Part shown: piece by piece, positions 10,516 through 58,546 of the stretch
Layout of the letters: each line of letters opens with the position of its first letter
How positions within the stretch are numbered: the stretch's first letter is position 1
Origin: an uncultured Candidatus Saccharibacteria bacterium
Lineage (GTDB): Bacteria > Patescibacteriota > Minisyncoccia > UBA6257 > WO2-44-18
Length of the DNA: 64,000 nt
Assembly: GCA_964637575.1 (NCBI GenBank)
Contig: CAZWVU010000001.1
Location: forward strand, 53,009 to 117,008
Reading direction: 5' to 3'
Notes under the pieces: model-generated
The model's database searches: none
Told to the model about the DNA's origin: nothing
What the model saw: only the letters and a program-made list of their open reading frames with translations
Translations under genes and position numbers: made by a program

Positions 10516-10551
10516 GGAATCTCCTTATCAAAATATCTTCCCATAGAATAC

Positions 10552-10580
10552 ATATAAAAAAGCGGCCCGTAAAGGCCGCT
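10552..10580 (-). terminator. Intrinsic terminator after gmhA
   Basis: Stem AGCGGCC/GGCCGCT (10560-10566 / 10573-10579), loop CGTAAA, U-run on the minus strand (plus A-run 10555-10560). Confidence 0.55.
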
Positions 10581-10591
10581 TCATTGGTGAA

Positions 10592-15704: not shown

Positions 15705-15737
15705 AAATCCTCCTTCAATGTTCTAACGGCAAATTAC

Positions 15738-15766
15738 AATAAAAAAACCCCGACGGCAAGTCGGGG
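15738..15766 (-). terminator. Intrinsic terminator after the radical SAM gene
   Basis: Stem CCCCGAC/GTCGGGG (15748-15754 / 15760-15766), loop GGCAA, U-run on the minus strand from the plus A-run 15741-15747. Confidence 0.6.
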
Positions 15767-17299: not shown

Positions 17300-17337
17300 A
17301 TCACCTCCGTGTATTTCTCAATGTGCGGAATTACTGT

Positions 17338-17376
17338 ACAAGAAAAAAAGAAAACTGGCAATTACATGCCAGTTTT
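17338..17376 (-). terminator. Intrinsic terminator overlapping the stop of the GHMP kinase gene
   Basis: 10-bp palindrome AAAACTGGCA / TGCCAGTTTT (17351-17360 / 17367-17376), loop ATTACA containing the stop codon, followed on the minus strand by CUUUUUUUCUUG. Confidence 0.5.
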
Positions 17377-30281: not shown

Positions 30282-31064
30282 TTAGGTATTTAAAATGTAA
30301 AAATTTTTAAACAATTCCACCACCAACACCGGGCCGGTACCCCCAGGAGTCGGCGTGTAAAAACCGAGAGCGTCCAGCCCGGAACTTTGGGTGTCGAGGT
30401 CGCCGGAGATTTTCCCGTTGACCATATCGAACCCGAAATCGATCACCCCAGCCCCCGGCTTCAGCATTCCCGGCTTCAGCAAGCCGGCTTTACCGGCGCC
30501 GGCAATCACAAGGTCGCAATCCTTAATTCTCGAAAAATCGGTTTTGGTGTGAAAAATGATCACCTCCCGGCATTGATTATAAAGCCATTTCGCAACCGGA
30601 TCGCCGACCAGCAATCCGCGGCCGACCACGCCGACAACTTTCTCTTTAATGTCCACTTTCGCTTCGGCCAGCACATCCTTCACCACTTCCACCGCCAGCG
30701 CAGAAACCGGCGACTCCGCCGTCAGCGCGTCCACATCCTTTTTCGGGAAAATGGCCGCGAGAATTTTCCCGCGGTTGAACTTTTCCGGCAAAGGCAGCTG
30801 AACCAGAATGCCGCCAATTTCTTTATCGACGCCCAGATGCGTGATCTCGGCAATCAATTCGGCCTGGGAAATATCCGCCGACAGGGTAATCAGCCGGAAC
30901 TCCACGCCAAGCTCTTCGGCGATTTTCCTTTTCTGCTTGAGAAAGCTCTCGGAGGCAGCGCTTTCGCCGACAAACACCGCGGCCAGCGCCTTGGTGGGCT
31001 TGGGCAGTTTCTTCAATTGCTCAATTATTTTCCGGGCAATAGATTTTCCATCGATAACAATCAT
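30282..31064 (-). CDS. folD: Bifunctional methylene-THF dehydrogenase / methenyl-THF cyclohydrolase
   Basis: 260 aa; MIVIDGKSIARKI...LAAVFVGESAASESF; overall FolD layout. Confidence 0.65.
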   Translation of the reverse strand: MIVIDGKSIARKIIEQLKKLPKPTKALAAVFVGESAASESFLKQKRKIAEELGVEFRLITLSADISQAELIAEITHLGVDKEIGGILVQLPLPEKFNRGKILAAIFPKKDVDALTAESPVSALAVEVVKDVLAEAKVDIKEKVVGVVGRGLLVGDPVAKWLYNQCREVIIFHTKTDFSRIKDCDLVIAGAGKAGLLKPGMLKPGAGVIDFGFDMVNGKISGDLDTQSSGLDALGFYTPTPGGTGPVLVVELFKNFYILNT

Positions 31065-31113
31065 GAAAAATTTTAAAGTTTAAATTTGAAATTTAAAATA
31101 AATGATTAAATTC

Positions 31114-32325
31114 TTAATAAGGCAGGGGAAATTTTTTGGCCAGCGCCGTAACTTCCTTCCGGACAAATTCCTTTTTCACAAGCGCCCGCTGGATCAATCC
31201 GGCGATTGTTTTCATCTGCGGTTCTTTCATCCCGCGGGTGGTGACCGCCGGAACGCCGATGCGGATGCCGGAAGGCTTGAAAGGGCTCTGATCGCCCGGG
31301 ATGGTGTTGCGGTTCGCAGTGATCCCGTTTTTCTCGAGCAGCTGCTCCGCGGTCATACCGTCCAGATTGACGCTCCGCATGTCGGCCAGCATTAAATGAT
31401 TGTCGGTTCCGCCGGTGACAAGCGTGAAGCCCAGGCGGACCAGTTCGGCCGCGAGCACCTTGGCATTTTTCAAAATCTGCTGCTGATATTTTTTAAAACC
31501 CGGCAGAGCCGCTTCAAAAAACATCAGCGCTTTGGCCGCGGTGAGATTATTATGCGGGCCTCCCTGCATGCCCGGAAATACCGCTTTATCGATCGCCTCC
31601 GCCAGGTTTATTTTTGAGAAGATTGCGGCGCCGCGCGGTCCGCGCAGTGTTTTATGAGTCGTCATCATCACCGCGTCGCTGTGGAGAAACGGGGATACGT
31701 GCACGCCGGCCAGCACCAGCCCGGCAATATGGGAGATGTCGGCGACATGATACGCACCGACGGAGTGGGCGATTTCGCCGAAGCGGCGGAAATTAATTTC
31801 CCGGGGATAGGCAGTGAGGCCGGAAACGATCACTTTTGGCCTGTGTTCTTTCGCAAGTTTTTCGATTTCGCCGTAATCCAGAAGTCCCGTCCGCTCATCA
31901 ACGCCGTAATGAATTACCTTATACGCCTTACCGGAAAAATTCACTTTGTGTCCGTGGGTGAGATGGCCGCCGGAAGAAAGCTTCAAGCCCATCAGCGTAT
32001 CGCCGAAATTCATGAGGGCCGCGTAGATGGCAATATTCGCCGGCGATCCGGAATAGGGCTGGACGTTCACCGCCCACTCCTCCGGTTTCAGATCGAACGC
32101 TTCCAGGCCGCGTTTCTTCGCGAGATTTTCAATTTGATCATAGTATTCATTGCCCGGGTAATATCGCCTGCCCGGATACCCCTCGGAATACTTATTGGTA
32201 AGCGGCGAGCCGATCACGGAAAGCATGTCTTGGGAAACATAATTCTCCGACGCGATCAGGTCGATGGTTTCTTTTTGCCGCTTGGTCTCCTCTTGTATTA
32301 AACGCCCGAGAATTTTATCTTTCAT
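31114..32325 (-). CDS. glyA: Serine hydroxymethyltransferase
   Basis: 403 aa; DLIASENYVSQDMLSVIGSPLTNKYSEGYPGRRYY, PLP-Lys region HKTLRGPRG. Confidence 0.85.
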   Translation of the reverse strand: MKDKILGRLIQEETKRQKETIDLIASENYVSQDMLSVIGSPLTNKYSEGYPGRRYYPGNEYYDQIENLAKKRGLEAFDLKPEEWAVNVQPYSGSPANIAIYAALMNFGDTLMGLKLSSGGHLTHGHKVNFSGKAYKVIHYGVDERTGLLDYGEIEKLAKEHRPKVIVSGLTAYPREINFRRFGEIAHSVGAYHVADISHIAGLVLAGVHVSPFLHSDAVMMTTHKTLRGPRGAAIFSKINLAEAIDKAVFPGMQGGPHNNLTAAKALMFFEAALPGFKKYQQQILKNAKVLAAELVRLGFTLVTGGTDNHLMLADMRSVNLDGMTAEQLLEKNGITANRNTIPGDQSPFKPSGIRIGVPAVTTRGMKEPQMKTIAGLIQRALVKKEFVRKEVTALAKKFPLPY

Positions 32326-32362: not shown

Positions 32363-33106
32363 ATGCGCTATTTTACCACTGAAGAATTAAAGGAGAACAA
32401 CCGTGACGAGGTGGCGCGCGTCCTCAAGGATTGCGTGGGAAAAAACGTCCGCTACAACCTCGCGTTTGAACTTATTGAAGACTACGCGAAACGCGCCCCG
32501 GCGCCGCAGGAGGTAACAATTCTGGACCTCGGAGTGGCGAGCGGGTATTTTTTAAAACAACTGCACAAGAAGGGGTACCGGAATCTTTTTGCCCATGACA
32601 TCGATGAATACCTGCCGCCGGAAACAAAAAAATTATTCCGGGAGTTCAAAACCGCGGAACTGAACACGGAGAAGCTTCCCTGGCCGGATAATTCCTTTGA
32701 TTTTGTCACCGCCTGGTGCGTCCTGCCGCACCTGGAAAATCCCTTCCATGCCGCCCGCGAGGCGCACCGCGTATTAAAACCAGGCGGCATCTTTCTTTTC
32801 AGCGCGCCCCATCTGACCTCCCGGGGCAGTATCGATTTTTTTCTGAAATACGGATATTTCGCAGGATACCGGGAAACCAACAATCACATCGCGATGCTGC
32901 CGCCCAGCATTGTTAAAAAAACGCTGTCCAAATATTTTACCGTGCTCGACCTGCAATATCTGGTGGTGCCGAAAATTTTCGCCGGCCTCAAGGGCCGCAT
33001 CCGGGAAGCATTATATGGATTTTCAAAACGTTTTCCCAGGTTTCGAACGTACCTGGGAAAACGCTGGGGTTATAACCTAATTTATATCCTGCAAAAACCG
33101 CAGTAA
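32363..33106 (+). CDS. SAM-dependent methyltransferase (paralog group A)
   Basis: 247 aa; FKTAELNTEKLPWPDNSFDFVTAWCVLPHLENPFHAAREAHRVLKPGG. Confidence 0.6.
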   Translation: MRYFTTEELKENNRDEVARVLKDCVGKNVRYNLAFELIEDYAKRAPAPQEVTILDLGVASGYFLKQLHKKGYRNLFAHDIDEYLPPETKKLFREFKTAELNTEKLPWPDNSFDFVTAWCVLPHLENPFHAAREAHRVLKPGGIFLFSAPHLTSRGSIDFFLKYGYFAGYRETNNHIAMLPPSIVKKTLSKYFTVLDLQYLVVPKIFAGLKGRIREALYGFSKRFPRFRTYLGKRWGYNLIYILQKPQ

Positions 33107-34444
33107 TTCGGAAGCAAGCCGCTGGCTGGAGTTTCCGTCAGTTTTATAACAAATCTGCTCAAGCGTTTTCTCCCGCTGCTCATTGTTCCGCGTCGGATCA
33201 TTGGCGTATGCCCCAATCGATTCAATCAGATCGTCTTCATTGGACGCCACGTGGCAACCGCCCCCGCGCGTCAGTGGCTGAAGATGTTCGAGGTCTAAAA
33301 ATTTCCGGATCCCGCCAAAACCGATCAGGATCACCGGTTTTTTAAAAAGCAGGGCGTCCACCGCGATGGTCGACGGGCCCGGCAACACCACGTCGCTGTG
33401 GGCAAGCGAGTTGATAAGATGCCGGTCGGCTTCGGAGTTCAGCTCTCCTTTTCCAAAAAGTTTTGCCGGCCGGTCAAACGCCATATTGGCAGGCGGGACA
33501 AAATTCCCCAGATCAACTTCGCCGATCAGCGGAAAACGTACCAGCACCTGAAATATTCGCGGGTCCAGCCGGCGCAGTAGTTCCAAAATCCGGCGGTTGT
33601 ATTCCTCATGACGCCCGGAAAACTGCTTATGGAGAAACATATCCGCGACGGCAACAAAAAGAATGGTTTTTTTGCCTGGATCAAGGCCGGCGCTCCGGAA
33701 AAATTCCGCGCGGGAATCGGTCCGGGTATTCAGGTATTTGTCATAGTGGGGAATTCCCACCACCACGACATCCCGCGCTGGAATGTGGTTATAGACCCGG
33801 CACTCTTCTTTGATCACCTCATTCCACACCGCGATCCGATCCGGCACCTCCCGGATAACTCCGCGGGTGGTCAGGTTGTCCCAGGAACGGACCATTCCGA
33901 TCACCGGAATCCCGTTCTTTTTCGCCTCCCGAATCAGATCAATGTCGCTGTCGCCGCTGCTCCGGTCGGTAATATCCGTCGAAAATACCAGCGCCGGTTT
34001 ATAGCGTTCGAAATAAATCCGGAATCTGTCGGACGGCAGGGTGTTCCGGTCCAGCCAGCGCACGAACAGGATTGCCGGCTTCCAACCCGCGCAGACGCCG
34101 GTCACGACCCGGCTGCCATAGTAACTGAATGCGGAAAGAACATTGCGGAAATTAGTGCGCATTTTCAAAAACATCCGGCTGGTATTGGTATTGATCAGAA
34201 GCCGCGACAGGGCGCCGATCAGAATTTTCCGCCGGCTCAACGGCGCCACCGGTACGCCTTCAATAATCACTTTTGCCGAGGAAAAATTCTTTTCCAGATA
34301 TTCCCTTTCCTTTTCCGGAGCGAGGATCACGACGCGCACGTTATCCGGACGCGTGACCATGTTCAGGAAATCCGTGTCCAGAAGATTGCGGACAACAAAG
34401 TTGGTAAAGGCCGTTATGAAAACGGTTTTCTGTTCCTGATTCAT
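33077..34444 (-). CDS. Unassigned GT-B-like paralog family member (455 aa, SWDNLT motif)
   Basis: GIPVIGMVRSWDNLTTRGVI; start overlaps (ATGA-type, 4 nt) the stop of the upstream CMP-sugar synthetase gene. Confidence 0.5.
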   Translation of the reverse strand: MNQEQKTVFITAFTNFVVRNLLDTDFLNMVTRPDNVRVVILAPEKEREYLEKNFSSAKVIIEGVPVAPLSRRKILIGALSRLLINTNTSRMFLKMRTNFRNVLSAFSYYGSRVVTGVCAGWKPAILFVRWLDRNTLPSDRFRIYFERYKPALVFSTDITDRSSGDSDIDLIREAKKNGIPVIGMVRSWDNLTTRGVIREVPDRIAVWNEVIKEECRVYNHIPARDVVVVGIPHYDKYLNTRTDSRAEFFRSAGLDPGKKTILFVAVADMFLHKQFSGRHEEYNRRILELLRRLDPRIFQVLVRFPLIGEVDLGNFVPPANMAFDRPAKLFGKGELNSEADRHLINSLAHSDVVLPGPSTIAVDALLFKKPVILIGFGGIRKFLDLEHLQPLTRGGGCHVASNEDDLIESIGAYANDPTRNNEQREKTLEQICYKTDGNSSQRLASELLRFLQDIN

Positions 34445-35166
34445 TTTTTGAATGCCAATGGCAGAAGCGCTTCCGCCATTTCCAGATCTTCCGCCGAATC
34501 AAGATCGAACGCGCTCAACCCGCTGATGATCAGGGGAAGGCACCGGTCGCCGATCGGTATATTTTTTTCCCGGATTACTTTCGGTGTAAAGACCCATAAA
34601 TTTCCGATCGCGTACCGCTTCGGCTTGGACTGGCGCGTGATATATTTGGCCCTCGCCTCCGGATCAACGAACTGAAGATAGCCATTTTCGTTGATCAGAC
34701 GGAGATTGATCGGATGGAAATCGTTCGGCACTTCCACTACGCTGGTAACCGAATCGGCCTCGGAATGCGCCTTGATTAACTCCAGCGCCGCGTCAATTTC
34801 GGCTGTTTTAATGAAAGGCGACGTAGCCTGGACCAGTATGATGTAATCAGGGATATACGATTCATGCGCTTCCAGCCATTCCAGCGTCTGACGGAGCACG
34901 GGCATGGTCGGAGTGCTGTCAGTGGCGAGCGCTGCCGGTCTCACATATGGAACTTCCGCGCCGAATTGTTTCGCCACGTCGGCAATTTCCCGGTCATCAG
35001 TGTTCACGATCAGCCGCGAAATGTGCCGGCTTTTTTTGACCGCTTCGATCGCGTAGGCGATGAGCGGTTTCCCGCCCAGCGGGACAATATTCTTTCCCGG
35101 TATCGATTTGGATCCTCCTCTGGCCGGAATGATCGCAAGGGTCCGCGGGGTTTCTGACATAACCAT
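34441..35166 (-). CDS. CMP-sugar synthetase (acylneuraminate cytidylyltransferase family), second copy
   Basis: 241 aa; AIIPARGGSKSIPGKNIVPLGGKPLIAYAIEA. Confidence 0.7.
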   Translation of the reverse strand: MVMSETPRTLAIIPARGGSKSIPGKNIVPLGGKPLIAYAIEAVKKSRHISRLIVNTDDREIADVAKQFGAEVPYVRPAALATDSTPTMPVLRQTLEWLEAHESYIPDYIILVQATSPFIKTAEIDAALELIKAHSEADSVTSVVEVPNDFHPINLRLINENGYLQFVDPEARAKYITRQSKPKRYAIGNLWVFTPKVIREKNIPIGDRCLPLIISGLSAFDLDSAEDLEMAEALLPLAFKK

Positions 35167-35202
35167 AAAATAACAGCAACAATGGGTTTTGGCAATTTCC
35201 GG

Positions 35203-35230
35203 TAATAAAAACCCCTCGAAAAGAGGGGTT
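35203..35230 (-). terminator. Intrinsic terminator after the SQD1-like gene
   Basis: Stem AACCCCTC/GAGGGGTT (35210-35217 / 35223-35230), loop GAAAA, U-run on the minus strand. Confidence 0.6.
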
Positions 35231-35235
35231 AGTAC

Positions 35236-36393
35236 TTAGCTTCTGCGCCACTTGATCCTGGGATTGATGATGTCCGGATCGATCTTCTGCTTCGCCTCAA
35301 CGACTTTGAGCAGCATCGAATTTACGAGGTCTTCGGAAAGGTTGATCGGTTTGAGACCGAGATTGAGAAGGTTCCGGTTGACCGCCTCGTAGTAGTGCTC
35401 TTCCTTTTCCACCCGGGGGTTCGGAATGTTGGCGATGTTCACGTCGAGGTTGAGTTTCTCGCCGGCCTCCTTGACCTTGCGCGCGAGCTCAAGAATCGTG
35501 AATGTTTCCGTGAACTGATTGAACACGCGGAACTCTCCGGGCTTCGCGGGATTGGTGACCGCGAGCTCCACGCACCTGATGGTATCGCGGATATTGAGGA
35601 ACCCGCGGGTCTGGCCGCCCTTCCCGTACACCGTGAGAGGAATGCCGGCCGCGGCCTGCACGCAAAACCGGTTCAGCGCGGTGCCGAAGACCTCGTCATA
35701 ATGGAAGCTGGTGAGAAGGTCGGGATGCAGTTCGGTACAGTCCGTCTCGATTCCATACACCACGCCCTGGTTCAGGTCGGTGGCCCGGATGTCCCAGAAG
35801 CGGCAGGCCGCTTCGATATTGGTGCTGTCGGCCACCTTGCTCGCGTGGTAGAACGAAGCCGGACGCTTCGGATAGAGCATGCGATCGGCGCGTCCTTTGT
35901 GAACCACGTCGATCCAGCCTTCTTCGATGGCGATGTTCGGCGTGCCGTACTCGCCCATCGTTCCAAGTTTGACCAGATGCGAATCGGGCATGTAACGCTT
36001 CATCGCGAAGAGCACGTTCATCGTTCCGATGATGTTGTTCTTCATGGTGTCGCACGCCTTCCGGGGACTGGCCATCGAATACGGCGCGGAGGGCTGCTCG
36101 GCATAGTGGATGATCGCCTCCGGCCGGAACTGCTCGAAGATCTCGAACAGAAACCGGTCATTTTCAGCGATGTCGCAGATCCGGTATTCGATGCCCTTGC
36201 CCGTAACTTTTTTCCAGGTCTTGATGCGCACCTGCAGCGTCGGCACCGCCCAGAGCGGCGTGGAGCTGTACTCCGCCTCCCACCGCCGCTTGATCATGTT
36301 GTCCACGATCATCACGTCGTGTCCGGCATTCGAAAAATGCATCGCCGTCGGCCAGCCGAGGTATCCGTCGCCACCCAGCACAAGAACCTTCAT
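35236..36393 (-). CDS. UDP-sulfoquinovose synthase (SQD1/Agl3)-like NAD-dependent epimerase/dehydratase
   Basis: 385 aa; MKVLVLGGDGYLGWPTAMHFSNAGHDVMIVDN resembles the SQD1-family N-terminus; AAGGAGG SD upstream. Confidence 0.5.
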   Translation of the reverse strand: MKVLVLGGDGYLGWPTAMHFSNAGHDVMIVDNMIKRRWEAEYSSTPLWAVPTLQVRIKTWKKVTGKGIEYRICDIAENDRFLFEIFEQFRPEAIIHYAEQPSAPYSMASPRKACDTMKNNIIGTMNVLFAMKRYMPDSHLVKLGTMGEYGTPNIAIEEGWIDVVHKGRADRMLYPKRPASFYHASKVADSTNIEAACRFWDIRATDLNQGVVYGIETDCTELHPDLLTSFHYDEVFGTALNRFCVQAAAGIPLTVYGKGGQTRGFLNIRDTIRCVELAVTNPAKPGEFRVFNQFTETFTILELARKVKEAGEKLNLDVNIANIPNPRVEKEEHYYEAVNRNLLNLGLKPINLSEDLVNSMLLKVVEAKQKIDPDIINPRIKWRRS

Positions 36394-36461
36394 GTCGCCT
36401 CCTTGGTTGTTCTGTAAAAATTACTACCCATATAGTCGCAAAAAATGGCACGTTAGTCAAC

Positions 36462-36496
36462 GCCAATAAAAAATCCCGGACACCTCCGGGATTTTA
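36462..36496 (-). terminator. Intrinsic terminator after the UDP-GlcNAc 2-epimerase gene
   Basis: Perfect palindrome ATCCCGGA / TCCGGGAT (36473-36480 / 36485-36492), extendable by A:T pairs, loop CACC, U-run on the minus strand. Confidence 0.65.
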
Positions 36497-37657
36497 ACTT
36501 TTCCTTAACAGACGATCATTCAACGGGATATACGCGATGACCTGGAAAACTTTTTCCGAGGAGTGCCCGTCGCCGAGCCGGTAGCCGCATCCGTCAAGCG
36601 TTCCGGAATCAAGCGAAAGCGCTTCGTCAATTGTTTCGCTGATCGAAGAAAGGGAAGTGTTGGCATCAAGCACATTGTCTTCCCGATCCCTCCCGCGCTG
36701 GCGGTTTCCGATGTTGACGGCCGGCACATGAAGATACGGCGCCTCCACTAAGGCGCACGAAGAATTCCCGATGATGAGGCGCGCCTCCTTGAGCAGGCCG
36801 AGAAAGTCCTGGTTGTCGATGTTCTTCCGCACCAGAAAAGTCTCGGGGTCTTTTCTCTGCCACGACTCGATGACGTTGATGATGCCTTCATAGCCGGGAT
36901 CGGAACAGGGGTAGACCATCAGCGCCTTCCAACCCTCTACACGCGCGCGGGCAGCCACCGCTGCCATCATATTATGCGCAGCCTGCCAGTTGGCTTCGGG
37001 CGTTTCCAGCGTGTCGGGATGGAGCAGGCCGATGATATAGCGCTGCTCTTTGCCGAAGCCAAACTTCTCCCGGGCAACCGCCGGAGGGGTGTACATTCCC
37101 GCCACAATCCGGTCGATGTACAGAGAGCCGACTTCGTGAATCCGCCAGGCCGGTTCGCCGATCGCCTTCAGCCGTCCGGCCGCCACCGTGGTTTCCGGAA
37201 AATGGAGATGGGCGAGTTTCGAAATGGCGTTCCGAAGCACGTCATCCACGTTGCCGGAAATCTCACCGCCCTGGGTATGCGTCACCGGAATATTGAAATG
37301 CGCGGCCGCCATCGCCATCGCCAGATGTTCGCCGCGGTCGGCATGCACCATCAGGAGATCGGGCTTGAGCCGCCCCAGAATTTCACCCGCTTTATACAGG
37401 CAGGTGCCGAGATTTTCCGTCCGGATCCGTTGCGAATCGCCCCGGCCGGCGCCCATTTCGATGAGCTCGATCCGGGCCTCCGGGAAAAAACTTTTTGCCT
37501 CGTTCGCCGTCGAACCGAACTCTGCCGACGCATGCATGTCCCCGAGGACCATCTGCAGCTCCAAATCCTTGTCGGCTTGGATGCGCCGCATGAGCGGCAG
37601 GTAGGCGCCAAAGCCGCCCCGCTTGCCGGAAAACACGCATATTGTCCTTCTTGCCAT
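36494..37657 (-). CDS. UDP-N-acetylglucosamine 2-epimerase, hydrolysing type (NeuC/LegG-like)
   Basis: 387 aa; VHADRGEHLA and GNSSCALVEAPYLHVPAVNIGNRQRGRD match the NeuC-family signature. Confidence 0.65.
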   Translation of the reverse strand: MARRTICVFSGKRGGFGAYLPLMRRIQADKDLELQMVLGDMHASAEFGSTANEAKSFFPEARIELIEMGAGRGDSQRIRTENLGTCLYKAGEILGRLKPDLLMVHADRGEHLAMAMAAAHFNIPVTHTQGGEISGNVDDVLRNAISKLAHLHFPETTVAAGRLKAIGEPAWRIHEVGSLYIDRIVAGMYTPPAVAREKFGFGKEQRYIIGLLHPDTLETPEANWQAAHNMMAAVAARARVEGWKALMVYPCSDPGYEGIINVIESWQRKDPETFLVRKNIDNQDFLGLLKEARLIIGNSSCALVEAPYLHVPAVNIGNRQRGRDREDNVLDANTSLSSISETIDEALSLDSGTLDGCGYRLGDGHSSEKVFQVIAYIPLNDRLLRKS

Positions 37658-37728: not shown

Positions 37729-39123
37729 CTACTTGAGACGCGGCATGATTGTTTTCACGCTGAACCAAAATCTCTTAAGAATATTTATCAAAAATTCTTT
37801 ATCGTATTCATTGAATACAAATAAACTTCTGATTTTTATCCTGAATTGTTCGTATTTCCTGACTAGCCGGGAATACAGGAACCAGCTCCGCACGATGCAG
37901 CCAAAAATGTAGTCGAACGCGATGCCGGGCAGCTGAAAGAGCGGCATAAACATTACCGCCGAAACCGGGTCGATCAGAAAATCGAGAATCACTCGCGCAC
38001 TGAGCGCTTTGTATTCCCGCAAATTGGTCAGGATCGCGCGCGTTACTTTCCAGGTGGCGTATACGGGCATGGCGAGCACCAGTATCCTGAATAGAAATAT
38101 CGCCGGAGCGTAATTCGGGAAAAGAAAAGTAATGATTACCGGCACGAAAATAAATCCGCCGATGGCAAACAAGACTCCCAGCCAGAACATGTATTTCATT
38201 GAGCGCTTGAATAAGAACGCCAGTTCCTCCAGGTGGCCGATCCGTACAAAGAAAAGCTGGGCGATCCCGTCAATCGGCACGAGGTTCTGCAAAGTTGCCA
38301 CCAGATTTACCGCCAGACTGTAAAACGCGACCGCTTCGGTATTGATAAACAGCTTGATGAACCAGGGCGTGGTATTGGATGAAACATTCACCAGGGCGTA
38401 ATTCAAAAACATCCATTTCCCGTGTGTTTTCACAAAATCAACCATCATAATCCGATTATAAGCCCTGATCCTTCCCAGTGTTTTCAAATAGGGGATAAGG
38501 GAAAGCACAAGCACCAGGATGAACACTTCAATCGCCATGCCCATCATATGCGCGATCGCGACATGCAAAATATCCAGCGTGGAAAAACGCACAAAAAACA
38601 AAATGAAGATCAGCTTGGCGAATTCGCGGATCGCAGGAGCTGCCCAGTAGGAAAACCGGACGATGGATTTTAAAAAAATACTGGCCAGGGATTCCAGCCC
38701 GGACAGGAAAAAGTAAGGGCTGATGATTTTGATCAGCAATCCAATGTCCTTGCCGTACCAGTGGGCGATGATATTCGCGCCGAAAAACACCGCGAGACTG
38801 ATCAGCGCGGTAAGCGGCAGGCGCCATGCGGCCATTTCCCAGAATATTCTTTTGGCCTTTTCCGGCTCTTTGTTATTGAAATGATGCCGCATCTCCGTGG
38901 CGATCGGACCGTCCAGATTATTAATGTCCAAACTGTCCAAAAGAGAAACGAATGCCAGTACGAGCTGGAAGGTGCCGAACTGGAAAATGCTTAACAGGCG
39001 AATCGTAAAAAAGGAACTCACATATCCGATCAGGGATGCCGACATGTCGAAAAACCGGCGCATGCCTTCGCCTTTAAAAAAATAGTATCCCAGCGGTTTT
39101 TTTCTCAATGCCTCGTCGTTCAT
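37729..39123 (-). CDS. Wzx-like oligosaccharide/polysaccharide flippase (MOP superfamily)
   Basis: 464 aa, about 12-14 predicted TM helices, polysaccharide_biosynth-type layout. Confidence 0.55.
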   Translation of the reverse strand: MNDEALRKKPLGYYFFKGEGMRRFFDMSASLIGYVSSFFTIRLLSIFQFGTFQLVLAFVSLLDSLDINNLDGPIATEMRHHFNNKEPEKAKRIFWEMAAWRLPLTALISLAVFFGANIIAHWYGKDIGLLIKIISPYFFLSGLESLASIFLKSIVRFSYWAAPAIREFAKLIFILFFVRFSTLDILHVAIAHMMGMAIEVFILVLVLSLIPYLKTLGRIRAYNRIMMVDFVKTHGKWMFLNYALVNVSSNTTPWFIKLFINTEAVAFYSLAVNLVATLQNLVPIDGIAQLFFVRIGHLEELAFLFKRSMKYMFWLGVLFAIGGFIFVPVIITFLFPNYAPAIFLFRILVLAMPVYATWKVTRAILTNLREYKALSARVILDFLIDPVSAVMFMPLFQLPGIAFDYIFGCIVRSWFLYSRLVRKYEQFRIKIRSLFVFNEYDKEFLINILKRFWFSVKTIMPRLK

Positions 39124-41270
39124 TGTAAAAGCGCGGCGGACAGCTTTTCCATTAACCCGGACAGGCTGTGTTTTTCCTGAATAAGGATACGCATGGTGCG
39201 GCCGATTGCCTCCCGCTCGGAAGGAGCCAGGGCAACAAATTCCCGGATTTTTGCCGCCAGATCATCATAGTCCTTTTCACTGAACATCAGCAATGAACGC
39301 AGCTCCGGAGGAAATATGTCCCGGAACGCCCCGTTACTCACGAGTACGGGAATTCCGCAGGCCATTGCCTCAAGGGTGCTCTTATCAAAACTGCCGGTGT
39401 CCGTGAGATTGATGAAGAGATCGTGCTGATGATACATACCTGGCGTATCCTGGTTTGGAACCGAGTCGCGGAGCTCTATTCTGCCGCGCGCGTCCGACTC
39501 TGCTGCAAGACTCCTGATCCGCGCATAATAATCCGCCTCCACCGGCTTGCCCGCCGTGGGGCTGCCGACAATAGTCAAAGATGCGTTGCCGATTGAAGGT
39601 AGCGCGGCCGCGAATGCCTGGAGCAACCCGTCGACATGTTTTACCGGAGCGATTCTTCCTAAGAATAAAATTTTAAAATGGCTGCCGTCCGCCTGCCGTT
39701 TGTCGTCCGGCCGGAAGCGGTCCGTGTCAATTCCCTGCTGCAATACTCTAAGCTTGCGGCTTGCAAACGGATAGGCCTGCCGCACCGATGTGACAATCGC
39801 TTCGGGGAAAAGCGCGGCGACCCGGAGCTTCCAGGTGCCAAGGTAATGGGCATACCACAACACCAGCCGCTTATGCCAAAGCCTCCAAAGCCATCCGGCG
39901 AGAATGACGTATTCGGGATTCATGTGGACAAAGACCGTGTCATAGTTTTTCCGAAGTCCCCATACATACCGGTAAAAATTCCAAAGGTATTTGATCCGGC
40001 TTTTCCCGCGCTCTTTGCCAAGCGAGTATATGGAAACATTTTCTGGAAGATCGGTTTTCCCCTGATACAGACAGATCACTGAAATGTGGTCGAAATGCGC
40101 CGCCAGTCCCCTGATCCACTGGTGGTAGACGCCAAGCACATCGTCGCGCAGATCGACTTTCTGGGTAATCATCAAAAGTTTTTTGGCGCGCGGAAACCGC
40201 AGGGACGCGGCATAGTCCCGGAGATATTCCTCCCGGCATTCCGGCAACGCTGCCAGAAATTCCCGCTGACGGTGTAATGTTGCCTGCCGCACCCCGGGAT
40301 TGCTGATCAGGCGGTCGACGGCTTCGATAAGCGCCATGACACTGCCGACGGGAATCACCTCGCCGAGGGCGACGCCGACATCGGTCATGATCACCGGCAC
40401 ATTGGCGGCGGCGGCTTCCACGGCGACACGTCCATATCCTTCATAATTTGAGGTCAATAAAAAAATATCGGCGGACTGGTAATAAGCGGCAAGATTGTTT
40501 GTCTGCGGCTCAAGCAGGACGTGCTGATCCAGTTTTAAATGGGCGATGCGGGCTTTAAGATTGTCGCGTTCCGGACCGTCGCCGACGATCACCAGAACGG
40601 CATGGGGATGTTTTTGAATAATGACCGGCATCATTTCAACCGCCATCCCAATATTTTTTTCTCTGGTCAGACGCGAAGCCATAAGCATCACGGGGTGCTT
40701 TCCGGGAAACATTTTTGCGTTCGGTGCCGCAGTCGCCGCGCGATCGGTAAAAATCGGCAAAACAGTAATCCGCTTCTCATCGACAAGATGGCGCCCGATC
40801 AAAGAAGTCCGTATCCGATCGGACACTACGCGCACGCCGTCCGCCTTCGGAAGAATCCGCCGGGCAATCGCGAGCCGGATTTTATTTTTCCAGGATTCCG
40901 CCACAAAAAACGGACTGAAAAGATCCGTGTGCACCTGTAACTGCAAGGGGTAGCCGAACCTGCGCGAAAGCCGGTATGCCGCGAGGCCATTTTCAAAAGG
41001 ATCCTGGGCGGTAATCGTCCATTCCCCGCCGGAAACAAACAGCTGCCTGGCAATGACGTCCGCGCGCCAGAGGGCGCCCACGCCCGTCCACGCAATGGCC
41101 GGATGCGCAGTAACTTTTTCAGAAACGACAACACTGGCTGCAGAATGATCTCGCGTGGGAATAATGATGTGGAGCTCATCAAAAAACGCCCCATATTCCG
41201 CCATTCTTCGCCGCGCCTCCGAATGTTCTTTCAAAATGGCGGCGTCAGTTGAGATCATTAATACTTTCAT
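39120..41270 (-). CDS. Tandem two-domain GT4 glycosyltransferase
   Basis: 716 aa; two GT-B units each with an E..E/Gly-rich acceptor motif (VAVEAAAANVPVIMT; LEAMACGIPVLVS). Confidence 0.6.
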   Translation of the reverse strand: MKVLMISTDAAILKEHSEARRRMAEYGAFFDELHIIIPTRDHSAASVVVSEKVTAHPAIAWTGVGALWRADVIARQLFVSGGEWTITAQDPFENGLAAYRLSRRFGYPLQLQVHTDLFSPFFVAESWKNKIRLAIARRILPKADGVRVVSDRIRTSLIGRHLVDEKRITVLPIFTDRAATAAPNAKMFPGKHPVMLMASRLTREKNIGMAVEMMPVIIQKHPHAVLVIVGDGPERDNLKARIAHLKLDQHVLLEPQTNNLAAYYQSADIFLLTSNYEGYGRVAVEAAAANVPVIMTDVGVALGEVIPVGSVMALIEAVDRLISNPGVRQATLHRQREFLAALPECREEYLRDYAASLRFPRAKKLLMITQKVDLRDDVLGVYHQWIRGLAAHFDHISVICLYQGKTDLPENVSIYSLGKERGKSRIKYLWNFYRYVWGLRKNYDTVFVHMNPEYVILAGWLWRLWHKRLVLWYAHYLGTWKLRVAALFPEAIVTSVRQAYPFASRKLRVLQQGIDTDRFRPDDKRQADGSHFKILFLGRIAPVKHVDGLLQAFAAALPSIGNASLTIVGSPTAGKPVEADYYARIRSLAAESDARGRIELRDSVPNQDTPGMYHQHDLFINLTDTGSFDKSTLEAMACGIPVLVSNGAFRDIFPPELRSLLMFSEKDYDDLAAKIREFVALAPSEREAIGRTMRILIQEKHSLSGLMEKLSAALLQ

Positions 41271-41899
41271 TTTTCTAAAATGAAAAAGTAATGATAATGA
41301 TTGAATGCCGGCCGGACTTCTTTCAGGATATTGAATTGTTTCTTAATTTCGGCACGCACCCGGGAAAGCCGGTAATTTCGCGCGTCAATTTCCCAGTAAT
41401 GTTGGCCGGAAACCTTGATCCCGCCGAATTTCAGGGGAATTCTTACAAAGAAATCCAGGAATAATCTCTTGAATAAGGTGCGGACTCCCGGAAATTTAAA
41501 CGCAAATTCGAATCCGGTCGATTTATACGGGAGCGACAGAACCACATGCCGCCTGGCCACGCGCTTCAGTTGCGCGAGCGCTTTCGGGAAATCCTCGAAC
41601 GGCAGATGCTCGAGCACCTCAAACGCCGTTACCACGTCAAAGCTGTTGTCGGCAAGCGGCAGCGAACGGACGTCAGCCACCACGTCCGGATTCAGACTCG
41701 CGTCAAAGTCACAGGCAGTAACCTGATAGCCGAATTTCTTCATGTAATCAGAAAAGGTGCCGTTACCCTTGCCGATTTCCAAAATAGTTTTCGGGTCCAG
41801 GGAGCCGACGAGGTCGGTTTGATAGAAATAGGAAATAAAACGATTGAGATCGTCGTACTTTTTGCGGAAATAATGCTGCGTATCAACCTGTGGCTTCAT
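41267..41899 (-). CDS. Class I SAM-dependent methyltransferase
   Basis: 210 aa; ILEIGKGNGTF motif I, LPLADNSFDVVTAFEVLEHLP. Confidence 0.6.
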   Translation of the reverse strand: MKPQVDTQHYFRKKYDDLNRFISYFYQTDLVGSLDPKTILEIGKGNGTFSDYMKKFGYQVTACDFDASLNPDVVADVRSLPLADNSFDVVTAFEVLEHLPFEDFPKALAQLKRVARRHVVLSLPYKSTGFEFAFKFPGVRTLFKRLFLDFFVRIPLKFGGIKVSGQHYWEIDARNYRLSRVRAEIKKQFNILKEVRPAFNHYHYFFILEK

Positions 41900-44129
41900 T
41901 GATTAAGTTTACTAAATTATCGACGGTTCGTTGTATGGAGAATTCTTGAGCCTTAGAATGAGCCGCGTGTCCGATATCGCGCCGGAACCCGAAATCGTCT
42001 CTGATTTTCTTTATGGCGGACAATATCTGATCTTTATTATTCGGCTCAACCAATATTCCTTCCTTGCCGTCTTCAATTAGTTCCGGGATGCTTCCTATTT
42101 TTGTGGCAATTACAGGAACATGGGCATTCATCGCTTCAACAATTGCAAATGAGAAACTTTCAAAACTCGTATTGAGGATAAAAATGCCCGCATTATGTAA
42201 ATAGTTGCTCAGCATCTTCTCTCTGCCAATCTCGCCCACCAGCGTAACTCTGTTCTCCAGCTTATATTCTCTAATAATCTCCTCTAATCTTGTTCGATCG
42301 GGACCTTCGCCGACAATAAAAAGTTTGGACTCAACCATTTCCGGATCGGCCATAAGTTTTATTAGGTAATCAAAGCCTTTCCAGGGAACCAGCCGACCGA
42401 CTGACAGTAATACATTATTATTGCGCACCGCCATCACTCCCCCTCTCAATTCAATGCCGTTATATATCGTCTTCACCTTCTCTGGCTGGGCGACCCATCC
42501 TCCCACCAATTTCTGAAAATACCTGCTTGGCGTGATCACTAAGTCCGCCCGGCCCACTACCAGGCGCTGAATCCGCCGGAGCAATTCGGTTTTCCATCCA
42601 TAGCGTCGGTGCTGGAACTCATCAATCGAATCCGATACGCCAAAACGCTGGGTCGCCTGCTCCCAGGCATAGTCGCCGGCGACGCGGATAAAAAACTTCC
42701 TACCGCGCAATTTCGCCGCCAGCATCGCGGGCAATCCCACGCTCACCGGGTCCTGTGCGTAGACAGCGTCAAAATTGTTCAGCATGCTCCAGCACCGCCG
42801 GAAATACGCGAAATGCCTGATGATGGTCGGTTTTTTCCTGAACGGCGTAAATGCCAGAACGCCCACAGACAATCCGCGTTTCGGCAGCTCTTTTTCCAGC
42901 AGGACGGTATAGGTGGCGGGGCCGCCGATATCCGGCGGATAGATGCCGGTGGCAATCAAGATGCGCGGCGCCCGATCCGGGGCATGCATCATCGAAAAGA
43001 TATTTTTCATTCTGGAGGCGATACCGTCCCAAGAATAGTTTCCGCGGGCCAGCGTGCGGCCATTGGCGGCGATCCGGCGCGCCGCGTCCGGATTATCCAA
43101 AAGATAGGTAATTTTTTCAGCGAGATCTTTGGGATTATCTATTTCACAAAAAAGACCGGTCTCTCCGTCTTTAAGAAAATCGGGGATACCGCCCGCCCGG
43201 GTGCCGATAACCGGCAGCCCCGCCGCCATCGCTTCCAGAAAAGAATTTCCCAATCCTTCCGACCGCGACGGCCTGACAAACACATCAGCGCCTGACAAAT
43301 AATCGGGGATTCGCTCCGGCTCAACATGGCCGAGAAATTCCATATTTTCCGCGACCCCAAGCTCCGCTGCCAGATTTTTCAACGATTGTTCATCAGGCCC
43401 GCTCCCGACGACTTGCATTGAGAATCGCGCGCCGCGAGTCTTTTTCAATTCCGCTGCCGCGCGGATTACAATATCAATTCCGTTTTTGTGAACCAATCGC
43501 GACGTGGTAATGATTACCGGTTTTTTGCCGGCATTTTTTGGTTTTTGATTTTCAGTTTTAAATTTACCGAAGTCCACTCCGTTGGGAACCATATCAATGG
43601 GGCATGACGCTCCGTGACGCCGGGCAAAGTCGCCAAGATAGTTGCTGATCACCTGGATGCGATCCGCTTTTGTAAAAATCAACTTCCACAAAGGATAGAA
43701 AATTCCAACCCGGTGAAGGATGTGCTCCTCCGAATCACCCTCCTGAAGGGTAAGCAGCATCGGCACATCAGGGTGGCGCAATTTAAAAAGAAGCGCTGCA
43801 ATTCCGGCATAGGAAGCCATCATCGCCCACGTGGCTGCGAAAGGCCGCTGTCGGTGTTCACGCTCCGCCGCGCGCCATGCCCGGATCACGTAGACGATCT
43901 TTTCCAAAAAACGGCCGTAGTAGTTTCCTCCGCTCCGCCCCTTTCCCACCCGGATTACTTCGGCGTTGCCGGACATTTCCCGCTCCGGCCATGTGGCATC
44001 AAAACGGGAGGTAAAGAGCACAAATTGGGCATCGGGAATCCGTCGGGAAATTTCTTCAATCGCAATTTCCGCTCCACCGACAAACGGCCGGTACGCGAGC
44101 GTAAACACGCCGATGACTTCTTTTGACAT
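41883..44129 (-). CDS. Tandem two-domain GT4 glycosyltransferase
   Basis: Start chosen at MSKEVIGVFTLAYRPFVGGAEI (44129; the ORF track extends to 44267). Two EX7E-type regions: EGLGNSFLEAMAAGLPVIGT and ESFSFAIVEAMNAHVPVIAT. Confidence 0.6.
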   Translation of the reverse strand: MSKEVIGVFTLAYRPFVGGAEIAIEEISRRIPDAQFVLFTSRFDATWPEREMSGNAEVIRVGKGRSGGNYYGRFLEKIVYVIRAWRAAEREHRQRPFAATWAMMASYAGIAALLFKLRHPDVPMLLTLQEGDSEEHILHRVGIFYPLWKLIFTKADRIQVISNYLGDFARRHGASCPIDMVPNGVDFGKFKTENQKPKNAGKKPVIITTSRLVHKNGIDIVIRAAAELKKTRGARFSMQVVGSGPDEQSLKNLAAELGVAENMEFLGHVEPERIPDYLSGADVFVRPSRSEGLGNSFLEAMAAGLPVIGTRAGGIPDFLKDGETGLFCEIDNPKDLAEKITYLLDNPDAARRIAANGRTLARGNYSWDGIASRMKNIFSMMHAPDRAPRILIATGIYPPDIGGPATYTVLLEKELPKRGLSVGVLAFTPFRKKPTIIRHFAYFRRCWSMLNNFDAVYAQDPVSVGLPAMLAAKLRGRKFFIRVAGDYAWEQATQRFGVSDSIDEFQHRRYGWKTELLRRIQRLVVGRADLVITPSRYFQKLVGGWVAQPEKVKTIYNGIELRGGVMAVRNNNVLLSVGRLVPWKGFDYLIKLMADPEMVESKLFIVGEGPDRTRLEEIIREYKLENRVTLVGEIGREKMLSNYLHNAGIFILNTSFESFSFAIVEAMNAHVPVIATKIGSIPELIEDGKEGILVEPNNKDQILSAIKKIRDDFGFRRDIGHAAHSKAQEFSIQRTVDNLVNLINEATG

Positions 44130-44161
44130 TGCCGTTATCTTATCGTACTGTGTACTCAATG

Positions 44162-45295
44162 GCAACCCGGAAAATTGTCTATCTGGTAACCAAAGATGAC
44201 GTGGGCGGCGCGCAAAAGTATGTTCAGGATCTCTGTGAAAATCTCGACAAAAGCCGGTTTGAAGCAAAAATAGTCACCGGCGGGAAAAAGGGGATCCGTT
44301 TTCTTTCCAACGCCTTTCTTCCCTACGCGCTTTTTATGAATGACTGGCTGGCGCTCACCGAGCTGGTGTTGTTTTTCCGCAAAGAAAAACCGGATATCGT
44401 TCATCTGAACAGCTCCAAAGCCGGCGTGGTGGGCGCCATCGCAGCGAAAATTGCCGGGGTTCCCCATGTGGTGTTTACCGCTCACGGCTGGGTATTCAAT
44501 CCCGACAGCCAGCTCGGTGCAGCCCGCAGAACATTCTATATAGCGCTCCATAAGCTGGCGGCGAAATTCCAGGACCGGATCATCAACGTGTCTGAATATG
44601 ACCGCCGTCTCGCGCTTACCCACCGGATCGCGCCTGCCCACAAATTGGCGACTGTATATAACGGCATCGACCGGGAAAAAGCAAAATTCCTGGATAAAAA
44701 AACGGCGCGAAGCGCCTTATCCCAAATGACCGGCCGCCGCATTCCCCTTACCGGCACCTGGATCGGATCCATCGGCCGGCTTGTAAAAGAAAAAAGTTAC
44801 GGTGATTTTATTGAGGCCGCCACCATGGTCAGCGACCCCTCCGCTCAATTTTTTATCATCGGAAGCGGAACGCTTAAAAAAGATCTGGAAATAAGGATCA
44901 GGGAGGCAGGGCTGGCGGAGCGGTTTTTCATCATAGAAAATGTTTCTCCGGCCGCGGCCTATATCCAGGCGTTTGACGTGTTCGCGTTGTCGTCTATCAA
45001 AGAAGGCATGCCCTACACCCTTATTGAAGCCATGGCCGCCGGACTTCCGATTGTTGTCACCCGCGTGGGCGGCATGCCGGAAATTATTGACGCGCTTGAT
45101 GAGGCGAAACGCGGCCTGGCTATGCCGCCCCGGTCTCCGGAAGAACTGGCCCGGGCAATTAATTATTTTCTGGAAAACAAGAAGGAGGCGGTCCGCTACG
45201 GCAGGAACGCACAACAGTATCAAAAGTCCCGGTTGGCGCTTTCCTCGATGGTCGCCCAGACGGAGGCGGCGTACCAGCTTACTGAAGCTTCTTAA
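44162..45295 (+). CDS. GT4 glycosyltransferase
   Basis: Start chosen at MATRKIVYLVTKDDVGGAQKYV (44162; the ORF track starts at 44123). KEGMPYTLIEAMAAGLPIVVTRVGGMPE. Confidence 0.65.
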   Translation, partial: ATRKIVYLVTKDDVGGAQKYVQDLCENLDKSRFEAKIVTGGKKGIRFLSNAFLPYALFMNDWLALTELVLFFRKEKPDIVHLNSSKAGVVGAIAAKIAGVPHVVFTAHGWVFNPDSQLGAARRTFYIALHKLAAKFQDRIINVSEYDRRLALTHRIAPAHKLATVYNGIDREKAKFLDKKTARSALSQMTGRRIPLTGTWIGSIGRLVKEKSYGDFIEAATMVSDPSAQFFIIGSGTLKKDLEIRIREAGLAERFFIIENVSPAAAYIQAFDVFALSSIKEGMPYTLIEAMAAGLPIVVTRVGGMPEIIDALDEAKRGLAMPPRSPEELARAINYFLENKKEAVRYGRNAQQYQKSRLALSSMVAQTEAAYQLTEAS

Positions 45296-46059: not shown

Positions 46060-46100
46060 AATACCAAAAAACCAAAACCCCCGCAAGAGCGGGGGTTTTT
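46060..46100 (-). terminator. Strong intrinsic terminator after the giant surface-protein gene
   Basis: Perfect 7-bp GC stem CCCCCGC/GCGGGGG (46078-46084 / 46089-46095), loop AAGA, followed on the minus strand by UUUUGGUUUUUUGG. Confidence 0.7.
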
Positions 46101-58514: not shown

Positions 58515-58542
58515 AAAAACGCCTCCGGTTTGCCGGAGGCGT
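58513..58542. terminator. Bidirectional-looking intrinsic terminator between convergent genes (the U-run favours the minus-strand lipoprotein gene)
   Basis: Perfect 10-bp stem ACGCCTCCGG/CCGGAGGCGT (58519-58528 / 58533-58542), loop TTTG, A-run 58513-58519. Confidence 0.6.
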
Positions 58543-58546
58543 TGGG

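Follow-up and report, generated by a model that had tools for sequence, protein, structure and literature searches.

The subject of this analysis is a minus-strand gene within a 64-kb stretch of DNA (64,000 nucleotides, hereafter the window), which encodes an extended short-chain dehydrogenase/reductase (SDR) resembling SQD1 of Arabidopsis thaliana. The gene, referred to below as the sqdB-like gene, has its own Shine-Dalgarno sequence and a hairpin on either side.

35236-36393, minus strand: SQD1/SqdB-family extended SDR (385 aa), a candidate UDP-6-sulfo-hexose synthase of the "P101 type"
36398-36404, minus strand: Shine-Dalgarno sequence AAGGAGG, 4 nt before the ATG of the sqdB-like gene, by direct reading of the sequence
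36462-36495, minus strand: intrinsic-terminator-like hairpin and T-run upstream of the sqdB-like gene (stem 36470-36495)
35202-35230, minus strand: intrinsic-terminator-like hairpin, 5 nt past the stop codon of the sqdB-like gene (stem 35210-35230)

A preliminary description of this DNA had called a 385-residue open reading frame (ORF), a strong Shine-Dalgarno sequence and a terminator on both sides of the gene, and all of these sequence elements are present. The protein begins with MKVLVLGGDGYLGWPTAMHFSNAGHDVMIVDN, as quoted there, and AAGGAGG occupies 36404-36398. The upstream hairpin starts within the stop codon of the NeuC-like gene ahead of it and has an 11-bp stem followed by TTTTTTATT (-16.4 kcal/mol, z = -3.3; none of 200 shuffles equalled its folding). 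It is palindromic, with A- and T-tracts, and can thus be read as a terminator on the plus strand too. In the downstream hairpin a G+C stem of 8 bp precedes TTTTTATT (-15.3 kcal/mol, z = -2.9). At both sites a G+C-rich hairpin with an adjoining U-tract follows a stop codon, and by sequence the two are terminators of the Rho-independent type.

The protein was compared by phmmer with all PDB chains. Arabidopsis SQD1 (1qrr) was the top match, with E=8e-145 over residues 2-384, whereas the next family, UDP-glucuronate decarboxylase, gave E=8e-12 over 73 residues, more than 130 orders weaker. BLASTP alignment with SQD1 showed 56% identity and one single-residue gap, and this identity to a solved structure settles the fold. 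The Pfam Epimerase domain (E=1e-21) spans residues 3-292, and the NAD-binding GxxGxxG motif is found as GGDGYLG at residues 7-13. In numbering equal to that of SQD1, the residues H96, T145-M146-G147-E148-Y149, S180, Y182-H183, K186 and Q209 are present and are invariant in 81 aligned homologues. A review of the nucleotide-sugar SDR enzymes gives [ST]MG...Yx3K as the fingerprint of SQD1 and Agl3, and [ST]DE or [ST]DK as that of dehydratases (PMC8987622); the window protein has TMG followed by Y182-x3-K186, which is the SQD1 type and neither that of GalE nor the [ST]DE of the 4,6-dehydratases. Mutagenesis of Agl3 revealed that His95, Met145, Glu147, Tyr148, Ser180, Tyr182 and Lys186 are needed for full activity (PMC4388408). 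All are kept in the window protein, as H96, M146, E148, Y149, S180, Y182 and K186. The SQD1-like identity that the preliminary description had proposed is borne out by the full-length match, and on its sequence the window protein is a member of the SQD1/SqdB/Agl3 family, in a variant with proline at position 101. Relatives of the protein are annotated as "NAD-dependent epimerase/dehydratase family protein" at NCBI and as UDP-sulfoquinovose synthase at JGI.

The sqdB-like gene is the third of five genes that follow one another, in the order of transcription, as Wzx-like flippase, NeuC-like epimerase, sqdB-like SDR, CMP-transferase and TagB-like glycosyltransferase (GT). The four neighbours, and a second group of genes that belongs to the same module in relatives, are as follows.

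37729-39123, minus strand: Wzx-like polysaccharide flippase (Pfam Polysacc_synt, E=3e-10)
36494-37657, minus strand: NeuC-like UDP-hydrolysing UDP-sugar 2-epimerase of the "NeuC-A" clade, directly upstream of the sqdB-like gene (Pfam Epimerase_2, E=7e-60)
34441-35166, minus strand: CMP-sugar (ulosonic acid) cytidylyltransferase of the PseF/NeuA/KdsB family, directly downstream of the sqdB-like gene (Pfam CTP_transf_3, E=5e-31)
33077-34444, minus strand: TagB/TagF-like GT-B related to BFO_1060 (Pfam Glyphos_transf, E=4e-8; NCBIfam BFO_1060_trans, E=2e-17, below cut-off)
26457-27419, 25519-26469 and 24790-25503, minus strand: D-2-hydroxyacid dehydrogenase, polysaccharide deacetylase and CMP-transferase, respectively, a displaced part of the module about 8 kb away (Pfam, NCBIfam)

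The NeuC-A protein passes the NCBIfam equivalog NeuC_NnaA (TIGR03568; 294 bits, cut-off 235.9), and its nearest solved structure is LegG (5xvs, E=2e-50). The cytidylyltransferase at 34441-35166 has PseF as its best NCBIfam match (160 bits) and the second CMP-transferase at 24790-25503 scores 155 bits with it; both remain under the cut-off of 205.7 bits and both pass Pfam CTP_transf_3. The TagB-like GT-B at 33077-34444 has paralogues at 21940-23253 and 7591-8946. These three proteins (437-455 aa) match the BFO_1060 domain at 45-63 bits (E=6e-12 to 2e-17), against a cut-off of 200 bits. BFO_1060 is a homologue of the pseudaminic/legionaminic acid (Pse/Leg) transferase of Tannerella forsythia (PMC5420450). 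We also considered TagF-like proteins acting with CDP-glycerol, with the CMP-transferases leading to a CDP-alcohol, and rejected this assignment because the best-matching families are PseF and the Tannerella nonulosonic acid (NulO) transferase.

These genes are embedded in a larger structure. From position 1 to about 45 kb, the window is nearly all one minus-strand glycan island, with GT4 genes, GT2, the Wzx-like flippase, many methyltransferases, serine hydroxymethyltransferase (SHMT), FolD, a formyltransferase and adenylating enzymes. The island also holds a radical-SAM/B12 enzyme, a gene of the phosphoenolpyruvate (PEP)-mutase/isocitrate-lyase family and a heptose-type set (SIS isomerase, transaldolase, GHMP kinase and nucleotidyltransferase). 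The GT4 genes nearest to the sqdB-like gene lie 3-6 kb off in a polysaccharide context, and no synthase gene for sulfoquinovosyl-diacylglycerol (SqdX of GT4 or SqdD of GT8) adjoins it. The role in a glycan that had been suggested for the gene fits an island with a Wzx-like flippase, GT4 and GT2 enzymes and NulO transferases. The best named matches of the ClpB protein in the window come from Parcubacteria, Paceibacterota and Harrisonbacteria (71-81% identity), and by sequence the host is a Parcubacteria/Paceibacterota-type bacterium of the Candidate Phyla Radiation (CPR). The SqdB homologues closest to the window protein (65-71%) are likewise from metagenome-assembled genomes (MAGs) of Patescibacteria. 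A recent acquisition of the gene was considered and rejected; the G+C content is unremarkable, and in two relatives (L082 and L085) one contig contains the island together with a ClpB homologue.

The comparison covered 80 genome loci that contain an SqdB homologue, three contigs from the closest relatives and 80 metagenome loci, the last found through an alignment of the NeuC-like protein. ORF calls in the fetched loci were mechanical. In an SQD1-rooted neighbour-joining tree, computed without support values, the window protein falls in a monophyletic clade of 20 members with NulO context, separate from a clade of 64 members from Chloroflexi and Terriglobia. For all 17 members of the former clade that have usable flanks, the few kb around the gene include NeuC-like, CMP-transferase, NeuB or TagB-like genes, and the CMP-transferase is a neighbour of SqdB in every one of these 17 loci. 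In the closest relatives (L082, L084 and L085; 69-71% identity) the order is APS reductase (not in all), NeuC-like, SqdB, CMP-transferase, 2-hydroxyacid dehydrogenase, TagB-like GT and deacetylase, APS standing for adenosine 5'-phosphosulfate; the genes of the displaced group in the window thus stand directly after sqdB in these genomes. Elsewhere the module is more compact. It reads NeuB-NeuC-cytidylyltransferase-SqdB with overlapping stop and start codons in L105, NeuB-NeuC-hydroxyacid dehydrogenase-cytidylyltransferase-SqdB in L098 and L100, NeuC-methyltransferase-cytidylyltransferase-CysH-SqdB-NeuB in L094, and NeuC-cytidylyltransferase-SqdB-NeuB in L017, a cyanobacterial single-cell genome labelled "Prochlorococcus". 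The order in L089 is like that of L094, with CysH-CysD-CysN directly before SqdB. NeuB is part of the SqdB module in at least 10 related loci.

A sulfur-assimilation gene recurs beside sqdB. A 225-residue PAPS_reduct protein is encoded no more than 1.6 kb from sqdB, mostly directly upstream, in 7 of 12 CPR genome loci (L002-L005, L008-L011, L061, L082, L084 and L085). These CysH-like neighbours have the motif CC...CxxC and a C-terminal ECGLH, which identify them as sulfite producers of the APS-reductase type. The partner proteins vary together with SqdB. Of the adequately flanked NeuC-like proteins at least 37% identical to that of the window, 11 of 15 share their locus with SqdB, compared to 1 of 32 among all others (Fisher p = 8e-7, the cases not being phylogenetically independent). 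Three changes specific to the NeuC-A clade add positive charge (T/S to K12, D/E to G15 and M to R79), and D40, C251, Y256 and Y308 are further residues invariant in it. The SqdB-linked NeuB is a subtype of its own, in which one loop is shortened and W..R replaces Q..M. Between the two SqdB clades themselves there are only three conserved differences, G98A, D223H and H339N. Genetic linkage connects the SqdB clade with sulfite-producing genes and with the NulO module.

Three further observations on these loci are worth recording. The neighbours in the 64-member clade are a GalE/TviC-like SDR, Wzx, GT4/GT2 and a metallo-beta-lactamase-rhodanese fusion; the fusion, possibly a sulfite or persulfide enzyme, stands beside the SqdB homologue in Chloroflexi (L021, L027 and about 20 other loci) and marks a second, distinct conserved context of the Pro101-type SqdB, and the GalE/TviC-like SDR adjoins sqdB in 49 of the 80 loci. 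A Syntrophaceae MAG (L012) has two SqdB paralogues (3399-4565 and 8856-10037, 62% and 46% identical to the window protein) in one NulO-type locus. Finally, a D-2-hydroxyacid dehydrogenase resembling PGDH and glyoxylate reductase is paired with a CMP-transferase in L098, L100, L082, L084, L085, the contig of the window (L087) and the window itself (26457-27419), and this pairing holds with or without SqdB.

In our judgement the gene probably encodes a functional UDP-6-sulfo-hexose synthase of the SQD1/SqdB/Agl3 type that feeds a surface glycan, with the terminators being punctuation of the island. The NAD-dependent enzyme would oxidise C4 of a UDP-hexose and eliminate the 6-hydroxyl by the 4-keto-5,6-ene route of SQD1 and Agl3; sulfite would then be added at C6 and C4 re-reduced, giving a UDP-6-deoxy-6-sulfo-hexose, by default UDP-sulfoquinovose. 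The APS reductase of the relatives, with or without CysDN, would be the supplier of sulfite. We infer that the product goes to the cell-surface glycan built by the island around the gene, which exceeds 50 kb, and not to a sulfolipid. On the conservative account of its fate, UDP-sulfoquinovose would be used directly by a glycosyltransferase of the island, and the NulO genes would make a separate sugar of the same glycan.

Several observations weigh against this assignment. Arg101, within the loop AEQ-R-SAP of the characterised enzymes, is replaced by proline in the window protein (AEQ-P-SAP), and the R101A variant of Agl3 is inactive (PMC4388408). The replacement is found in all 84 locus homologues and in 118 of the 120 closest database homologues, and among cluster representatives of the family (50% identity) proline outnumbers arginine at this position by 59 to 19. 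Arginine is kept in SQD1, in SqdB of Sinorhizobium meliloti and in the sqdB-GT8-sqdC operon of Marinovum, which is of the sqdB-sqdD-sqdC type. By these alignments, position 101 divides the family into two types and does not set the window protein apart. A defect private to the window gene was rejected as an explanation of the proline, which is common to every close homologue and to most family representatives. Our searches found no characterised enzyme of the P101 type. The protein aligns end to end with the NCBIfam model UDPsulfquin_syn (NF041015; residues 1-383 with model positions 1-384), but at 436.2 bits it falls below the cut-off of 575; we do not claim equivalog status, as both Arg101 and the curated cut-off are lacking. 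The search for sulfite-generating genes suggested in the preliminary description found neither an APS or PAPS (3'-phosphoadenosine 5'-phosphosulfate) reductase nor another sulfite source in about 74 kb of the contig (the window and 10 kb to its left). The window itself contains no NeuB and no APS or PAPS reductase, and tblastn of the CysH and NeuB of relatives against it gave no match. No specific sulfoquinovosyl-transferase was identified. With respect to transcription, most hairpins of the island sit just 40-50 nt before the next start codon. Such spacers are too short for a promoter and a leader, so that read-through is likely and the hairpins probably attenuate transcription or stabilise transcripts instead of forming complete ends; the monocistronic status of the sqdB-like gene is not established.

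A more far-reaching proposal, which we regard as possible though less probable than not, makes SqdB the opening step of a CMP-NulO route that leads to a 9-deoxy-9-sulfo nonulosonic acid carried at the cell surface in CPR bacteria and in scattered members of other phyla. SqdB would stand in place of the 4,6-dehydratase of the legionaminic pathway. UDP-GlcNAc or UDP-Glc and sulfite would give a UDP-6-sulfo-6-deoxy sugar, from which NeuC-A would remove UDP with epimerisation at C2; the NeuB subtype would condense the product with PEP, the CMP-transferase would activate it and a BFO_1060-like GT-B would transfer it. The tight, translationally coupled operons, varied in gene order and spread across phyla (L105, L098, L100, L094, L089 and L017), speak for this route, as do the co-occurrence of NeuC-A with SqdB and the basic residues gained in the NeuC-A (K12, R79) and NeuB (W..R) subtypes. 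LegG, the structure nearest to NeuC-A, acts on a 6-deoxy sugar, and the CPR loci are without the usual 4,6-dehydratase and DegT aminotransferase, DegT being found in L017 and L057 only. In contrast, neither in the window nor in its three closest relatives is there a NeuB within 10 kb of sqdB. A single NeuB was seen in this genome, about 9 kb past the left edge of the window and some 45 kb from sqdB; it stands beside a type-B NeuC, and its subtype is not the SqdB-linked one. NeuC-A passes the ordinary NeuC equivalog and could simply make ManNAc, and with three clade substitutions only, SqdB displays no visible remodelling for a 2-acetamido substrate. The GT4-like gene that overlaps the stop codon of sqdB in L105 could be a plain sulfoquinovosyl-transferase, and glycan clusters often combine the pathways of several sugars. 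Our literature searches found no sugar of this kind, and none of the papers they returned connects sulfoquinovose with nonulosonic, pseudaminic or legionaminic acids, with neuB or with Patescibacteria.

The hairpins bear on a further claim, namely that the sqdB-like gene is a strictly monocistronic unit, fully insulated by terminators and switched by the availability of sulfite. We scanned the whole window for perfect stems of at least 7 bp with at least 4 G-C pairs and a T-rich tail. This strict scan returned 13 sites against 0.15 expected from mononucleotide shuffles, so that the flanking hairpins are real, far beyond chance. Eleven of the 13 are on the coding (minus) strand, every one at a gene end. 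Comparable hairpins with T-runs follow the genes at 2312-3280, 3352-4356, 7591-8946, 10592-11236, 15767-17299 and 46124-49885, the first of which is likewise bracketed at both ends, and nearly every minus-strand gap of 60-100 nt has a hairpin. Perfect G+C-rich hairpins with T-runs were located at the following positions, together with two promoter-like sites near the sqdB-like gene.

2277-2300, 3325-3346, 9672-9691, 10560-10581 and 14196-14219, minus strand: perfect G+C-rich hairpins with T-runs
15746-15768, 17351-17376, 46074-46099 and 58518-58543, minus strand: perfect G+C-rich hairpins with T-runs
36432-36460, minus strand: weak sigma-70-like promoter candidate of the sqdB-like gene, TTGACT-17 nt-GACTAT (8 of 12 matches), below the threshold of the promoter scan
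35167-35195, minus strand: putative promoter-like site before the cytidylyltransferase gene, TTGCCA-17 nt-TATTTT with TG, from the promoter scan

The preliminary description had held the terminators to be unique in the island to this gene, and this does not hold: at least 10 other genes of the window are followed by such hairpins, and one of these genes likewise has them at both ends. The hairpins look like a general intercistronic punctuation of the island and most probably attenuate transcription or stabilise transcripts. The spacer between the hairpin and the start codon of the sqdB-like gene is 76 nt; no other in the island could accommodate a promoter plus a leader, and a weak promoter may belong to this gene alone. 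The promoter-like site of the cytidylyltransferase gene is better than that of sqdB and ends 1 nt before the first ATG. This gene has no Shine-Dalgarno sequence, and its second in-frame ATG (35160) lies 7 nt past the -10 box; a leaderless mRNA is therefore possible. In relatives, hairpins bracket sqdB on both sides in L084 and L085, and a hairpin with a T-run is found downstream only in L082 and L061, in all four with sequences unrelated to those in the window. Hairpins are absent from the tight sqdB operons of L003, L004, L009 and L010. Rfam was searched with the whole window at gathering thresholds and with 35100-36600 at E up to 1, and neither search turned up a credible RNA element in the leader or the spacers.

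The bracketing of the gene, shared with L084 and L085, and the 76-nt spacer with its promoter candidate and strong Shine-Dalgarno sequence are what a sulfite-switched unit has in its favour. We consider such a unit unlikely, in view of the hairpins after other genes, the weakness of the promoter-like site, the failure to detect a riboswitch, leader or regulator, and the tight, hairpin-free operons of distant relatives. Separate or sulfite-dependent regulation, as proposed in the preliminary description, is thus unsupported, and of its monocistronic unit the bracketing hairpins stand while transcriptional isolation does not follow from them, given the short spacers elsewhere. It is plausible, on the arrangement of these signals, that the sqdB-like gene behaves as a semi-autonomous unit.

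The absence of Arg101 also raises the question of whether P101-type proteins add sulfite at all. They might instead be UDP-hexose 5,6-dehydratases, or other SDRs, that feed NulO synthesis in the manner of Pen, the 5,6-dehydratase known to catalyse the first step of a Pse pathway (PMC8987622). The inactive R101A variant of Agl3 (PMC4388408) and the formation of UDP-Glc-5,6-ene by Agl3 in the absence of sulfite would agree with this, as would the window's lack of a detected sulfite source. Yet in relatives within the P101 clade the gene adjoins that of an APS reductase (with or without CysDN) or of a rhodanese-metallo-beta-lactamase fusion, and these sulfite-linked neighbours are hard to explain for an enzyme that does not use sulfite. 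The remaining catalytic and fingerprint residues are intact, and proline is the majority state of the family; we therefore hold this explanation to be improbable.

Synthesis of UDP-sulfoquinovose for sulfoquinovosyl-diacylglycerol is the classical role of the family, to which the 56% identity to the plant enzyme and the GT4 enzymes of the island (the family of cyanobacterial SqdX) could be related, but we hold it to be very improbable, since no glycosyltransferase adjoins the gene as it does in the S. meliloti and Marinovum operons, the enzymes of those operons have Arg101 where the window protein has proline, the neighbours (a flippase, NulO genes and tailoring enzymes) are of the kind usual where polysaccharides or protein glycans are made, and the host is a CPR bacterium, a group that is generally without de novo lipid synthesis.

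Other parts of the island are described here for completeness. The contig (L087) continues past the left edge of the window, whose position 1 corresponds to L087 12234, and in the segment L087 11905-21722 the island extends for at least a further 9.5 kb. This segment encodes two TagB-like GTs, a GNAT protein, a TylF methyltransferase, a third CMP-transferase, a second 2-hydroxyacid dehydrogenase and an EamA transporter, in addition to NeuB and a second NeuC-like protein, which shares 27% identity with the first. The NulO-transferase-like paralogues of the genome thereby number about five, and its CMP-transferases three. At the left end of the window, an acyl-tailoring block (513-7589, minus strand) comprises AMP-binding enzymes (513-2234 and 5758-7251), an ApbA-type 2-ketoacid reductase (2312-3280), a protein of the PEP-mutase/isocitrate-lyase family (3352-4356), a GNAT-like protein (4424-5473), a phosphopantetheinyl transferase (about 7248-7589) and small carrier-like ORFs (about 284-508 and 5529-5780). 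This block may provide an unusual hydroxy-acyl or phosphonate substituent of the glycan. SHMT and FolD lie within the island (23253-24065 and 30282-32325) together with the formyltransferase and the polysaccharide deacetylase, and the set resembles a dedicated source of one-carbon units for making an N-formylated sugar; a DegT-type aminotransferase was not found in the window. The heptose-type set (8948-11236 and 15126-18360) consists of the SIS isomerase, a transaldolase/FSA-family protein, the NTP-transferase, the GHMP kinase and a NUDIX protein, and the B12-binding radical-SAM enzyme is at 15767-17299. Two genes encode double GT4 fusions of 716 aa and 794 aa (39120-41270 and 41883-44267), with two GT4 modules each. 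A 612-residue ORF in the middle of the island (19207-21045) has zero Pfam matches. At the edge of the island, a protein of 1253 aa (46124-49885), whose sole recognised domain is a peptidoglycan-binding one, is a candidate surface protein or glycosylation target, and the strongest hairpin of the window follows its gene (-24 kcal/mol).

Sulfoquinovose is known from photosynthetic sulfolipids and a few archaeal N-glycans, and the cell-surface chemistry of CPR bacteria is almost unknown; the present SQD1 homologue belongs to a surface-glycan island of such a bacterium. If the conservative reading is true, sulfoquinovose glycans extend to bacteria, and the module could serve as a marker in metagenomes. 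The Pro101 branch, which holds the majority of the cluster representatives of the family, is flagged here as uncharacterised. A sulfonated nonulosonic acid, if true, would be a new class of anionic sugar. A new sink for assimilated sulfur and a relevance to recognition between host and epibiont are possible further implications.

With respect to known systems, the legionaminic and neuraminic pathways (LegB, LegG/NeuC, LegI/NeuB and LegF/NeuA) have counterparts here in the NeuC_NnaA, LegG and PseF-like matches and in the NeuB of the relatives and of the island; they differ in opening with a 4,6-dehydratase where the module has an SQD1 homologue, and the CPR loci are without DegT. The APS reductase and the D-2-hydroxyacid dehydrogenase of the module occur in no described NulO pathway, and the combination of SqdB with NeuC-A and the CMP-transferase (and with NeuB, the APS reductase and the 2-hydroxyacid dehydrogenase) is in no paper from the literature searches made. 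The Tannerella NulO transferases (Tanf_01245/BFO_1060) are matched through their family domain model by the three TagB-like GT-Bs, whose scores are far below the 200-bit cut-off. Pen (of the Pen/Pal route), the UDP-GlcNAc 5,6-dehydratase with which Bacillus thuringiensis makes pseudaminic acid, resembles the SQD1 type as an SDR that opens a NulO pathway by way of a 5,6-ene (PMC8987622), but it has [ST]DK instead of TMG and does not use sulfite. The sulfolipid operons (sqdB-sqdX in cyanobacteria, sqdB-sqdD-sqdC in Rhodobacter and Sinorhizobium) share the family and the first step; in them a transferase comes directly after sqdB, and the S. meliloti and Marinovum enzymes have Arg101 and are about 42% identical to the window protein, whose neighbours are NulO genes. 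Agl3 of Sulfolobus acidocaldarius, acting in the synthesis of an S-layer N-glycan, is the precedent of a sulfoquinovose synthase for a protein-linked glycan (PMC4388408), although it has an essential Arg101 and is not linked to genes of the NeuC/NeuB/NeuA type. Plant SQD1 (1qrr and 1i24) differs in Arg101 and in serving a sulfolipid where the window gene has a glycan and NulO context, and the window protein is bacterial and cytoplasmic; yet the two proteins are 56% identical with no large gaps, and they have in common the GxxGxxG motif, T145/Y182/K186, H183 and TMG(E)Y.

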